64,000 nt of DNA from Nitrospirota bacterium (GTDB lineage Bacteria; Nitrospirota; Thermodesulfovibrionia; UBA6902; DSMQ01), in NCBI GenBank assembly GCA_016212185.1, contig JACRGX010000002.1:3760-67759 (forward strand), written 5' to 3'. Under the pieces are notes generated by a model, which had not been told where the DNA came from, searched no databases, and worked only from the letters and a program-made list of their open reading frames with translations. The translations under genes were made by a program, and so were the position numbers. The stretch's first letter is position 1. Each line of letters starts with the position of its first letter. Below, piece by piece: positions 40,526 through 43,075 of the stretch.

Positions 40526-43075
40526 ATGGTAACTTTAACAATTAACGGCAAACAAATTGAAGCTGTAGAAGGCACGACCATTCTTGAGGCTGCGCTGAAA
40601 AACGGCATCAGGATTCCAAACCTCTGCTATGACAGAAGGCTCAAGCCTTATGGCGCATGCAGGTTGTGCGTTGTTGAAGTGGAAGGTCAGCCGAGGCTTT
40701 TTGCTTCATGCTCAAGCCCGGTCACTGCAGGCATGGCGGTAAAAACTGATACGCCGAAACTGAGGAAGGCGCGCCAGACAGTGCTTGAGCTCATGCTGGT
40801 GCACCATCCTCTGGACTGCCCGCTATGCGACAAGGCCGGCGAGTGCGACCTTCAGGACTTTGCATACGACTACGGTAAACCTGAAGCGCGCTTTATCAGA
40901 CACCGGAAAGAAGCGCCTCCTGATGTAAGGGGTCCACTGGTAGAGCTGACTGCAAACAGATGCATTTTATGCGGCAAATGCGTGCGGCTGTGCGATGAGC
41001 ATCAGGGCCGGGGAGCATTAGGGTTTATCGGCAGGGGATTTTCTACAGTGGTCCAGCCTGCTTTCGGCGAAATACTTGAATGCGATTACTGCGGGCAGTG
41101 CATAGATGCATGTCCTACCGGCGCGCTTCTCAGCAAACCGTATAAATTCAAGGCAAGGCCCTGGTTCCTTGATGAAAAAGATACCATATGCCCGTTCTGC
41201 GGCTGCGGCTGCACCCTGACTCTCGGAATTCGGGATGGAGAAATATTAAGGTCACGGGGAGTAGAAGGCAGGGGACAAAGCAAAGGCAATCTCTGCGGCA
41301 GGGGCAGATTCGGCTTTGATTACATTTACAGCAAAAACCGCCTGAAGACCCCGCTGATTAGAATAAAGGATAAAAAAGAGGGTTCAAGGATTCAAGGATT
41401 CAAGGATTCAAGTGAAAAACTCGACCCCTCGACCCCTCGACCCCTCGACCCCTTTCCAAGTTTTAGAGAGGCTTCCTGGACTGAGGCGTTGAATTACATC
41501 AGCGAAAACCTCCGGTCTATTTCAGAACAACACGGGCCGTCTTCCATAGGCGCCATAGGCTCGCACAGATGCGCTAATGAAGATAATCATATGCTGCAAA
41601 AATTCATGAAGCACATTATCGGCTCAAACAATATTGACTCATCGGCAGCCTTTGGCTATGCAGTTGTTGAAAAGGCATGGGAAACGGCCTTCGGTCAAAA
41701 ATGCCACAGCATTAACCTTAAATCCCCGCTTGATAAAGAAGCCATTCTGATAGTTGAATCCGACCTGACTGTTACGCATCCGGTATTCGGGCTGAATATC
41801 TTACAGGCCAAAAGGGAAGGTTCAAAGCTTATTGTTGCCGACAGTAGGGAAACAAAACTTACAAGACACAGCTCGCAGAAGCTCAGGATAAAACCCGGGA
41901 CAGGCATAGCCCTGCTTAACGGAATAATGAAAATTATAATGGACAAAGAGCTCTTTGATAAAGAAAAGGTATCGGGTATTGCAGGTTTCTCAGCGCTTCA
42001 GACATTATTAGATGATTACACCACTGAGAAGGTCTGCAGGATTACCGGATTAACAGAAGCAGAGCTGACAGCAGCCTCTGAAACATATGCCCGCGCCAAA
42101 AGCAGAATGATTTCCCTCACAATAAGCGCTTCGGAGAACACCAAAGGCATGGATACCGTTCTTGCCGCTGCCAATCTTATCTTACTGCTTGGCGACAGCC
42201 ACAGCTCGCTTCAAATACCTGCGGAATATTCAAACAGCTTCGGCGCATATCACCTTTTGAACGGTTTAAACAATTCAAGCACAGGAAAAGATATTTTTGA
42301 AATGCTTTATAACCCGGACTCTATCAGGGCATTATATATCATGGGAGAAGACCCTGCGCTCAACTTCCCGGACACCTCAAGTATAATAAATAAGTTGAAG
42401 TCTTTGGATTTTCTGATTGTTCAGGACATAGCGCTTACTGAAACCGCAAAATTAGCGCATGTAGTCCTGCCTGCGTCAAGCTGGGCTGAAAAAGACGGAA
42501 CATTCACCAATGCCGAAGGGCTTAACCAGCGGCTGCAAAAAGTAATTGACACGGCAGAACAGCCTCTTCCTGACTGGAGGATATTGAAGGACCTTGCTTT
42601 ATGCATGGGGAAAGACACAGGCATAAGAAACATTGAAGATATTACCAAAGAAATAACTTCATCCTTCAACCCTCAACCTTCAACCCTCAACCCTCAACCT
42701 TGTTTTAGTCCGGTTAGTTACGCCCCTGCCGAAAAATCAGACAGTTATCCCATATCCCTGATACTCAGGGATATTCTTCAGCACTCAGGGAGCATGTCTG
42801 CACGGTCAAAATCACTGGACCTGGTGGCATCCGAGGCAATTCTTGAGATAAATGAAGAAGATGCCAAAAAACTCGGCATCACAGACAACAGTCATGTAAA
42901 AGTAAGTTCAAGCCGTACCAGTGTTTATCTTAAGGCAATGGTTTCCGACGAAATCCCGGAAGGCGCAGTGTTTGTCTCTGCACATTTTCCCCATGCAAAA
43001 ATAAACACCCTGACCTCTCCCTTCTTAAACGGCATGCCCTCTATCACCATGGTAAATATAGAAGCCGTGAAGTAA
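40526..43075 (+). CDS. NuoG / FdhA-like subunit (2Fe-2S, 4Fe-4S, MopB and molybdopterin-dinucleotide-binding domains) lacking the Cys/Sec Mo ligand
   Basis: The N-terminal FeS domains and MopB CPFCGCGCTL cluster are intact. Where FdhA has NNVDHCARYUHSATVAGL...GSGAMTNS this protein reads NNIDSSAAFGYAVVEKAWETAFG. Start reassigned to the ATG at 40526 (GAAAGG RBS), outside the upstream hairpin. Confidence 0.75.
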   Translation: MVTLTINGKQIEAVEGTTILEAALKNGIRIPNLCYDRRLKPYGACRLCVVEVEGQPRLFASCSSPVTAGMAVKTDTPKLRKARQTVLELMLVHHPLDCPLCDKAGECDLQDFAYDYGKPEARFIRHRKEAPPDVRGPLVELTANRCILCGKCVRLCDEHQGRGALGFIGRGFSTVVQPAFGEILECDYCGQCIDACPTGALLSKPYKFKARPWFLDEKDTICPFCGCGCTLTLGIRDGEILRSRGVEGRGQSKGNLCGRGRFGFDYIYSKNRLKTPLIRIKDKKEGSRIQGFKDSSEKLDPSTPRPLDPFPSFREASWTEALNYISENLRSISEQHGPSSIGAIGSHRCANEDNHMLQKFMKHIIGSNNIDSSAAFGYAVVEKAWETAFGQKCHSINLKSPLDKEAILIVESDLTVTHPVFGLNILQAKREGSKLIVADSRETKLTRHSSQKLRIKPGTGIALLNGIMKIIMDKELFDKEKVSGIAGFSALQTLLDDYTTEKVCRITGLTEAELTAASETYARAKSRMISLTISASENTKGMDTVLAAANLILLLGDSHSSLQIPAEYSNSFGAYHLLNGLNNSSTGKDIFEMLYNPDSIRALYIMGEDPALNFPDTSSIINKLKSLDFLIVQDIALTETAKLAHVVLPASSWAEKDGTFTNAEGLNQRLQKVIDTAEQPLPDWRILKDLALCMGKDTGIRNIEDITKEITSSFNPQPSTLNPQPCFSPVSYAPAEKSDSYPISLILRDILQHSGSMSARSKSLDLVASEAILEINEEDAKKLGITDNSHVKVSSSRTSVYLKAMVSDEIPEGAVFVSAHFPHAKINTLTSPFLNGMPSITMVNIEAVK
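41380..41453 (+). repeat. In-frame tandem nonamer insert (GGATTCAAG)3-(CTCGACCCC)4 within the NuoG/FdhA-like CDS
   Basis: Encodes GSRIQGFKDSSEKLDPSTPRPLDP. A near-identical copy lies in the paralog at 55112..55184. Confidence 0.8.

Follow-up and report, generated by a model that had tools for sequence, protein, structure and literature searches.

The 64,000-nt stretch analyzed here (the window) lies on contig JACRGX010000002.1 of a Nitrospirota bacterium and carries two fdhA-like genes that share an in-frame repeat insert, the subject of this report. Copy A (positions 40526 to 43075, plus strand) encodes an NuoG-like, FdhA-like protein of the molybdopterin family with a length of 849 amino acids (aa). 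Copy B (53270 to 56035, minus strand) encodes a selenocysteine (Sec)-containing alpha subunit of a nicotinamide adenine dinucleotide (NAD)-type formate dehydrogenase. Both assignments come from the translations; in the transfer proposed below, copy A is the recipient and copy B the donor. Copy B aligns over residues 4 to 914 (of 921) with the alpha subunit of M. extorquens FoDH1 (PDB 7vw6; E = 5.5e-228), and its in-frame TGA at 54908 to 54910 pairs with the catalytic Cys of that enzyme, which is followed by His. The Pfam domains of copy B homologues are a NuoG-like Fe-S N terminus and a Mo/W-bis(pyranopterin guanine dinucleotide) domain. By these features, copy B is a Sec/Cys formate dehydrogenase alpha subunit of the NAD type. 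Copy A falls outside that definition on the catalytic Sec/Cys-His motif, since DSSAAFGYAVVEK stands where copy B reads DHCARY(U)HSATVAG. The copy A protein is 100% identical to MBI5194747.1 (NCBI, 'MAG: Nitrospirae bacterium'; encoded on a 75-kb contig) and belongs to a family with 119 other members, which share 63 to 72% identity with it (BLASTP), are mostly 816 to 822 aa long and are annotated as NuoG-like. The first-pass annotation had called copy A degenerate; it is not a decaying gene, and is instead a conserved member of this NuoG-like family without the Sec/Cys-His pair.

Each copy lies in an operon. Operon A encodes a response regulator-NuoE fusion, a small ferredoxin-like protein, NuoF, fdhA copy A, and a cytochrome c. 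The fusion gene (37115 to 38032, plus strand) joins a response-regulator receiver domain to a NuoE-type 2Fe-2S thioredoxin-like domain, and the same fusion occurs in the orthologous locus L170. Operon B has the order NuoE-like, NuoF-like, and fdhA copy B, followed downstream by the gene for a cyclic nucleotide monophosphate (cNMP)-binding protein and then by that for formate-tetrahydrofolate ligase (FTHFS).

In both fdhA copies the open reading frame (ORF) runs in frame through a repeat block of 75 nt (25 codons), located at 41379 to 41453 on the plus strand in copy A and, as the reverse complement, at 55111 to 55185 in copy B. The encoded peptide is GSRIQGFKDSSEKLDPSTPRPLDP. The in-frame insert common to both paralogues had been noticed in the first-pass annotation, which described its units as nonamers; Tandem Repeats Finder (TRF) gives a period of 8, and a literal (GGATTCAAG)3 is absent from the sequence. 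The block reads (GGATTCAA)x4.2, a TGAAAAA loop, and (CTCGACCC)x4.2. In copy A, the left arm (41379 to 41412, plus strand; TRF-listed as (AGGATTCA)4.2, 96% matches) is followed by the hairpin loop (41413 to 41419, plus strand, from sequence and fold) and by the right arm (41420 to 41453, plus strand; 100% matches), a stop-free variant of the complementary unit. In copy B, TRF places the left arm at 55152 to 55185 and the right arm at 55111 to 55144, both on the minus strand, with one right-arm unit reading CTCAACCC, as probe matches also show. Read in reverse complement, the right-arm unit becomes GGGGTCGA and falls within the GGRKTCRA family to which the left arm also belongs, which indicates that the insert is an imperfect inverted repeat of two octamer arrays, a feature not mentioned in the first-pass annotation.

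The similarity between the two copies continues beyond the repeat arrays, by 19 nt on the left and 26 nt on the right. In an ungapped comparison of 41360 to 41479 (plus strand) with 55204 to 55085 (minus strand), 117 of 120 bases are identical (97.5%), the three A-specific bases being 41431G, 41456C, and 41464T, and divergence is immediate on either side, which bears out the initial description of a near-identical tract with abruptly diverging flanks. A blastn alignment across the repeat block gives 93.9% identity over 147 nt. Overall identity between the two copies is 42% for the proteins and about 50% for the DNA, with third positions at about 35 to 40% in the codon alignment. Codon-aligned windows at 41366 to 41455 are 98 to 100% identical, third positions included, and 19 to 20 of 20 third codon positions agree in two core windows versus about 7 of 20 elsewhere. 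The ends of the tract fall in the conserved PLIR and SW(T/D)EA codons, which provide 10 to 20 nt of homology with one or two mismatches, i.e., microhomology.

Within this tract, a 37-codon loop block at 41363 to 41473 (plus strand), IKDKKEGSRIQGFKDSSEKLDPSTPRPLDPFPSFREA, also written IKDKKEGSRIQGFKDSSEKLDPSTPRPLDPF(P/S)SFREA, replaces the 8-residue turn of the A family, as determined from the A-family alignment and orthologue DNA, and the tract brings 87 extra bases into copy A. All 119 other members of the A family carry the 8-residue turn, typically KNGELVPA, at the insert site. In an alignment of all 120 A-family proteins the insert columns are filled by the window's own protein only, and a pattern match found the turn in 105 of 107 proteins, the other two being the window's own protein and a mis-anchored match. 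The A-type turn was also confirmed in the DNA of L169 and L170. The extended loop is present in most of the 118 closest B-family members, and the same octamer insert occurs in five B orthologues (P0003 to P0006 and P0009, 73 to 79% identity). The donor counterpart of the tract (55085 to 55204, minus strand) has the same block in the DNA of orthologues L084, L081, and L085. B-type flanks, IKDKK.GS and DPFS.FREA, are present even in hairpin-free B orthologues, e.g., P0014, P0032, and P0038. Orthologues carrying the segment, named in the first-pass annotation as a sign of an ancestral linker, were thus found for B and not for A. Because the A family has the KNGELVPA turn and copy A carries flanks and insert of the B lineage, the transfer ran from B to A and replaced A's own turn. 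The near-identity patch includes synonymous sites, is typical of the donor and is absent from the recipient's orthologues, two of the features by which ectopic conversion is recognized. The comparison indicates a short, non-reciprocal ectopic conversion of about 120 nt from B to A.

A second B-like patch lies at 40344 to 40550 in operon A (plus strand; blastn, 85.5% over 207 nt versus operon B) and covers an element in the nuoF-fdhA spacer together with the first 8 codons of copy A (MVTLTING). The spacer element has octamer arms at 40372 to 40397 and 40477 to 40511, with (GTTATAA)5 in its loop. Its counterpart in operon B, identified by blastn, lies at 56011 to 56203 (minus strand), and a related element is present in the close relative L086, the right arm of which equals that of operon B save for a few substitutions. 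The A orthologues L169 and L170 have no such nuoF-fdhA spacer element, and their proteins start with MIEL. Besides the NuoF-like gene, the spacer element is the only other stretch of at least 100 nt that aligns between the two operons by blastn.

The nuoF-fdhA spacer is also occupied in other loci. L001 (9577 to 9999), L002 (about 9575 to 9990), L131 (235 to 612), and L133 (4765 to 5142) carry there a TIGR02436 four-helix-bundle gene of the type found in 23S rRNA intervening sequences (IVS) or related to Avd. In L001 and L002 this ORF sits in the loop of a hairpin, the stems of which are inverted heptamer arrays (GTAAGGC...CCTTACG), and the fdhA insert of L001 is made of the same heptamers as its spacer hairpin stems. 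A tblastn search with the four-helix-bundle ORF found none in the window.

The repeat units of the insert recur between genes, as the first-pass annotation had suggested. Two-unit probes gave 15 and 6 matches in the window versus 0.03 and 0.01 expected by chance. In total, six copies of the octamer-hairpin family lie in the window, at 24.8, 38.4, 40.4, 41.4, 55.1, and 56.1 kb, four of them intercistronic and two inside ORFs. The intercistronic copies are found outside the fdh operons between two minus-strand genes (24765 to 24875, no strand assigned), between the 127-aa ferredoxin-like gene and nuoF of operon A (38422 to 38521, no strand assigned; minimum free energy, -36 to -39 kcal/mol), in the nuoF-fdhA spacer of operon A (40372 to 40511, plus strand), and in the upstream spacer of operon B (56050 to 56177, minus strand); the first and the last two were delimited by unit matches and fold. 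Members of the family are built from two arrays in inverted orientation, each with about four tandem octamers (GGRTTCAA ... YTYGAMCC), that enclose a loop; this loop has 7 nt in coding copies and more in those of the spacers. Intergenic copies contain GGRTTCAA arrays, a loop often starting with CAAGTGA, and then TCACTTG and CTTGAMYCC arrays, and they are flanked by an A-run and a T-run that prolong the palindrome. No target-site duplications were found at the family copies examined in the window. These matches show the 75-nt segment, at the level of sequence, to be a translated, stop-free copy of a dispersed palindromic repeat family.

The octamer family also occurs upstream of fdhA in L086 and L114, at other positions in L142 and L094, and in IMG/VR contigs of 47 to 53% G+C, among which L176 has a compact version with CTCGACCC/CTCGAATCC right-arm units. 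A search with the family pattern gave 8 matches versus 2 and 1 for two permuted control patterns. GGRTTCAAG octamer hairpins lie between genes in the viral-classified contigs L171/L172, L175, and L176 (48 to 53% G+C, or 47 to 53% with L174), which indicates that the family spans hosts of differing base composition. None of the hairpins had a match in Rfam at gathering thresholds, and a full-text literature search with the octamer arrays as literal strings found no paper. Repetitive extragenic palindromic (REP) elements act on mRNA processing or stability, and by analogy the intercistronic copies may do the same.

The site of the insert is variable in relatives of copy B. Across phyla, the loop is an 8-residue turn in 79 of 129 sites. 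In the Nitrospirota clade it measures 18 to 54 residues and is highly variable; among the 118 closest B-family proteins it ranges from 8 to 49 residues, with up to 54 in DNA loci. Its contents are translated repeats such as SSLVTRHSSL, PPLxKGGxGG, SEFGIRNSEF, and TLTLPPRGGGQGWGG. Proteins P0001 and P0002 are 97% and 95% identical to copy B with the insert masked, yet their inserts are unrelated to that of copy B, and the DNA of L086 and L087 is 93 to 96% identical to B along the gene and about 50% in the insert. The reverse holds for L084, L081, and L085, with 70 to 75% identity along the gene and 84 to 95% in the insert. The insert of L086 is another octamer hairpin, (GAAGTTAA)n...(CTCAACTT)n, common to L096 and L091; this type shows no excess of identity over its flanks (0.72 to 0.78 versus 0.75 to 0.77). 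Only the window-type insert exceeds its flanks in conservation (84 to 91% versus 76 to 79%). Inserts that match repeats of their own locus were seen in the window, L001, L087, L096, and L109. These alignments show a hypervariable loop, the contents of which are discordant with the gene backbone in a cassette-like manner.

Loop extension in two Chloroflexota metagenome-assembled genomes (MAGs), L049 and L054, is apparently independent of that in the Nitrospirota clade. In both, the same FdhA loop is occupied by in-frame repeat arrays, and about 1 kb downstream a second site forms a strong hairpin. The heptamer/octamer loop arrays lie at 10841 to 10957 in L049 and 10841 to 10981 in L054, and the downstream hairpin lies at 11830 to 11950 in both. 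This hairpin, also in frame, reads (TGAAGGA)n...(TTCATCC)n and folds at about -49 kcal/mol. The TTCATCC heptamer (peptide SSFILHPSS) recurs in Nitrospirota inserts.

For copy A, an AlphaFold model based on an alignment of 60 sequences has a mean predicted local distance difference test (pLDDT) score of 69.9, with the pterin domain mostly at 85 to 97. Residues 283 to 309 have pLDDT values below 50 and no secondary structure, and they lie between strands 277 to 279 and 313 to 315. At the insert position, the solved structure of the FoDH1 alpha subunit (7vw6) shows a loop of 24 residues (approximately chain residues 352 to 375 by the alignment with copy B). The modeled coil and the FoDH1 loop are consistent with a permissive peripheral loop, and we infer that the insert peptide is a functionless, neutral, disordered surface loop. 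The early proposal of a mini-element tolerated as a surface loop agrees with the origin of the insert in copy B, where the hypervariable, repeat-filled loop corresponds to a low-confidence coil; its independent arrival in copy A does not agree with the evidence above.

The fold predicted for the insert is stronger on the antisense strand, which permits G-U pairs (-42 to -44 kcal/mol; z of about -5), than on the mRNA strand (about -26 kcal/mol). Were the right arm the perfect complement of the left, the reading frame would run ...LESLNP* and end at a TGA. Every intergenic right-arm unit contains TGA, and CTCGACCC is stop-free in every frame. The right arm probably deviates from the perfect complement because the latter carries the in-frame TGA; likewise, one mismatch per unit removes TAA from the insert of L086. 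The family does hold a stop-free, perfectly pairing solution, GGATTCGA with TCGAATCC, which is unused here, leaving three mismatches per unit on the mRNA strand, and this non-use would speak against an mRNA hairpin being under strong selection. Among inserts with 28 or more residues, 26 were tested, and 16 of these have a z of -3 or below on at least one strand. The arms of L081 are decayed (z of -0.9 to -2.6), the right arm of L085 is lost, and several inserts do not fold at all, which indicates that the hairpin structure is not conserved. This insert type is represented by four distinct DNA sequences only. A link with Sec insertion was considered and rejected: the insert lies about 200 to 275 nt upstream of the UGA (54908 to 54910), and the expected place of a Sec insertion sequence (SECIS) is downstream. 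Bacterial SECIS elements sit immediately downstream of the UGA.

Taken together, a stop-free copy of the palindromic family probably came to lie in the loop of copy B and was then carried into copy A by a conversion of about 120 nt, within a loop that is repeatedly refilled. In copy B the octamer element lies between the PLIR and FREASW strands, where most bacteria have an 8-residue turn. The tract in copy A is explained by a non-reciprocal transfer of about 120 nt out of copy B, bounded by the PLIR and SW.EA codons, and the upstream spacer element with the first 8 codons of A forms a second B-like patch. The palindromes and repeats may render the site recombination-prone, promoting breakage or template switching; repair would then draw on an ectopic or foreign template at microhomologies, probably through template switching or short-patch synthesis. 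Such recombination-prone repeats would lead both to the cassette-like replacement seen in close relatives and to the conversion between paralogues.

Several observations weigh against this account. Copy A rests on a single metagenome assembly, and no independent assembly of copy A is closer than 72%. The flanking homology of A and B is only 10 to 20 nt with one or two mismatches, so that classical RecA-dependent conversion is not obviously favored. The arrays are perfect in both the window and L084 though their flanks are only about 77% identical, the two inserts themselves being 91% identical; pure neutral decay predicts no such perfection, and selection or recent lateral transfer is therefore possible. 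In addition, the match between an insert and the repeats of its own locus was seen in only about 5 of 34 loci by 10-mer sharing, a test limited by short flanks, and the sharing totals (209 versus 132 in controls) are not far above background, for which reason the match is not claimed as a general rule.

Other origins of the shared segment were weighed against conversion. The first-pass annotation had offered gene conversion and independent insertion as alternatives, of which only the former, with direction B to A, is supported. Independent arrival of the same mobile mini-element in both paralogues through site-specific targeting could draw on the dispersal of the family, on the different families that landed in the loop in different lineages, and on the PLIR and SWDEAL motifs common to A and B. 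However, the shared block includes the B-lineage codons IKDKKEG... and ...DPF(S/P)SFREA, KNGELVPA was replaced rather than added to, the 119 other A-family genes have no insert despite the same motifs, and there is no target-site duplication, which together make such an origin very improbable. A linker inherited from the duplication that gave rise to A and B would explain why both paralogues carry the segment at a homologous position. It is excluded with near certainty, because synonymous sites are saturated elsewhere, against 97.5% identity in the block, and the A orthologues lack the segment; most phyla also have the 8-residue turn. It is also highly unlikely that the insert of copy A is an assembly artefact, a chimeric join through the repeat. 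In favor of an artefact, the sequence comes from a MAG, misassembly classically occurs at repeats, and the A allele has no second assembly. A crossing in the assembly graph, however, would swap flanks and join A-left to B-right, whereas A-family sequence is present here on both sides; moreover, the copies differ at three positions and lie inverted on one contig 13 kb apart.

Two further readings concern function and mobility. The hairpin or peptide may be functional and selected, e.g., as a site of RNase III cleavage or processing, as a translational pause between the Fe-S and Mo/W-pterin modules, or as a docking loop, in which case the conversion into A would be favored and not merely tolerated. 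Family hairpins occur at every spacer of at least 100 nt within the two fdh operons, 16 of the 26 longer inserts fold with z of -3 or below, the type I insert exceeds its flanks (84 to 91% versus 76 to 79%) with perfect arrays in two diverged genomes, and a 23S-IVS-type four-helix-bundle ORF is present in related spacer hairpins. This reading is nonetheless unlikely: the structure is not conserved (decayed in L081, one arm lost in L085, several inserts non-folding), near-identical genes have inserts unrelated in sequence and length, an 8-residue turn suffices in many clade members and most phyla, and the stop-free perfect pair GGATTCGA/TCGAATCC was available yet unused. A broader and rather doubtful proposal is that inverted arrays of 7- to 8-mers constitute an undescribed class of horizontally spreading cassettes, mobile or recombination-prone and in some cases with an S23p/Avd-like four-helix-bundle ORF. 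These would be actively exchanged, at structured positions of mRNAs and genes, across subsurface Nitrospirota and Chloroflexota and subject to processing or selection at the RNA level, with the FdhA loop as a maintained landing pad.

The insert was compared with known repeat systems. The closest analogue appears to be the Rickettsia palindromic elements (RPEs), selfish palindromic DNA found in frame in protein genes (Ogata et al. 2000, 2002, as summarized in PMC10969869). RPEs are dispersed, non-autonomous hairpin repeats located both between genes and in ORFs, where they are in frame, translated, and compatible with the host fold. The RPE-type features found here are dispersed hairpin-forming copies and in-frame, stop-free copies that are read through. 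RPEs measure about 100 to 150 nt and consist of a unique palindrome, whereas the present element has 75 nt and tandem octamer arms. The host here is a free-living anaerobic Nitrospirota bacterium rather than Rickettsia, and a single loop is reused by many unrelated repeat families that are exchanged like cassettes. The likeness to RPEs is claimed as a functional analogy and not as membership.

REP elements and bacterial interspersed mosaic elements (BIMEs; PMC3733652) resemble the family in being imperfect palindromes, intercistronic in operons, present in many copies, and without target-site duplications. They have a unique imperfect palindrome of 20 to 40 nt, one end of which bears a GTAG or CGTC tag (PMC3733652), whereas the arms here are tandem octamer arrays of 24 to 34 nt that start with GGRTTCAA and have no such tag; in addition, the two copies studied lie inside ORFs and not in extragenic DNA. 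No RAYT transposase was identified among the ten window proteins scanned against Pfam, a scan that included no RAYT-directed search. Like MITEs (miniature transposable elements with inverted repeats), the family has inverted arms; however, the flanking A- and T-runs extend the palindrome and there are no direct duplications, which sets it apart from MITEs.

In the heptameric short tandemly repeated repetitive (STRR) sequences of cyanobacteria and the heptameric TAACTGA repeats of Beggiatoaceae (PMC4679880), arrays of 7 to 8 nt are likewise abundant near gene boundaries with lineage-specific units, and stop codons in the unit are argued to constrain coding TAACTGA copies (PMC4679880). The present arrays differ in their inverted pairing into long hairpins, their in-frame copies in an enzyme loop, and their Nitrospirota and Chloroflexota hosts. 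They are not STRRs in the cyanobacterial sense, given the 8-nt unit and the Nitrospirota host, although the window does hold many heptamer arrays. In heterocystous cyanobacteria, STRR arrays within the gene for RNase P RNA lengthen a helix.

As in ectopic gene conversion generally, a short, non-reciprocal patch of near-identity lies in saturated paralogues with an identifiable donor lineage. The differences are the gain of 87 bases, flanks with microhomology only, and the centering of both patches on palindromic repeat elements. The stem with an optional ORF in L001 and L002 has the layout of the 23S rRNA IVS with the S23p ORF (Coxiella, PMC4990558), but the elements here lie in an mRNA spacer or a coding loop instead of rRNA, and the window copies have no ORF. 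Mitochondrial coding palindromes of Nematomorpha (PMC6649704) are also long inverted repeats translated within conserved protein genes; they differ in belonging to an organelle genome, in being perfect and up to 284 bp long, and in having no tandem short units.

The first-pass annotation had reported a second low-complexity insert in copy A. The heptamer array itself, (TCAACCC/TCAACCT)x~6 at 42657 to 42701 (plus strand; TRF period 7, 4.9 copies; peptide FNPQPSTLNPQPC), is real, but it is no insertion relative to the 119 copy A orthologues. The A-family alignment has a linker of the same length at this site in all members. In close A orthologues, the linker consists of 7-residue repeats such as SSIVNRQSSIVNRQS and LSHQPSAISHQPC, and the DNA of L169 and L170 has linker arrays of equal length made from GACACGT and TCACGCA units, which indicates that the array is a variable linker whose length stays constant. 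The equivalent region of paralogue B is longer and not alignable. A similar in-frame array, (AGCTATC/AGCCATC)x4.9 with the peptide SYQPSAISHQ, lies at 48313 to 48346 inside the ORF at 48027 to 48875 (minus strand), which looks like a shikimate dehydrogenase gene from its synteny with L085. This type of peptide and repeat is also present in the site-2 linker of copy A orthologues and in the Chloroflexota locus L054.

Further arrays lie near the two operons. (TCTTAAC)n heptamer arrays are located at 53261 to 53292 and 44108 to 44144. The former encodes the last residues of copy B (KLRVKS*) and runs past the stop codon, and the latter lies just beyond the stop of an 882-aa gene (44151 to 46799); in the close relative L087, both the fdhA insert and the upstream spacer are made of this heptamer family. 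A long palindrome (52575 to 52690, -42 kcal/mol) between the FTHFS and cNMP-binding genes of operon B is composed of decamer (TTGTTCAAGT) and nonamer (AACCATTTG) arrays, and a related AACCATTTA array lies at 34483 to 34569; together they represent a second family of arrayed hairpins. An (ACGCATT)x4.4 array (9863 to 9893) lies inside a putative gene, a 698-codon ORF (8770 to 10866, plus strand), and a related (TACGCAT)x4.6 array (37062 to 37093) just upstream of operon A. A perfect (TCTG)x8.2 array at 19332 to 19364, in the spacer between two minus-strand ORFs, could be slippage-prone. A c-di-GMP-I riboswitch (Rfam RF01051; 52.4 bits, above gathering) was found at 47640 to 47719 (minus strand), upstream of a 136-aa minus-strand ORF (46920 to 47330), which had no NCBIfam match at E <= 0.001 and no Pfam match at E <= 1e-5.

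The locus would provide a clean, datable case of a short ectopic conversion into a saturated paralogue, with donor, recipient, and both ends of the tract established. It would extend the phenomenon of selfish palindromes within genes from Rickettsia to free-living anaerobes and present one enzyme loop as repeatedly refilled by unrelated repeat families, with the constraint imposed by stop codons visible in one hairpin arm. The loop may mark an insertion-tolerant site in NAD-dependent formate dehydrogenases, and FoDH1 is also extended there; the FdhA loop can also mislead phylogenies, annotation pipelines, and MAG assemblers.

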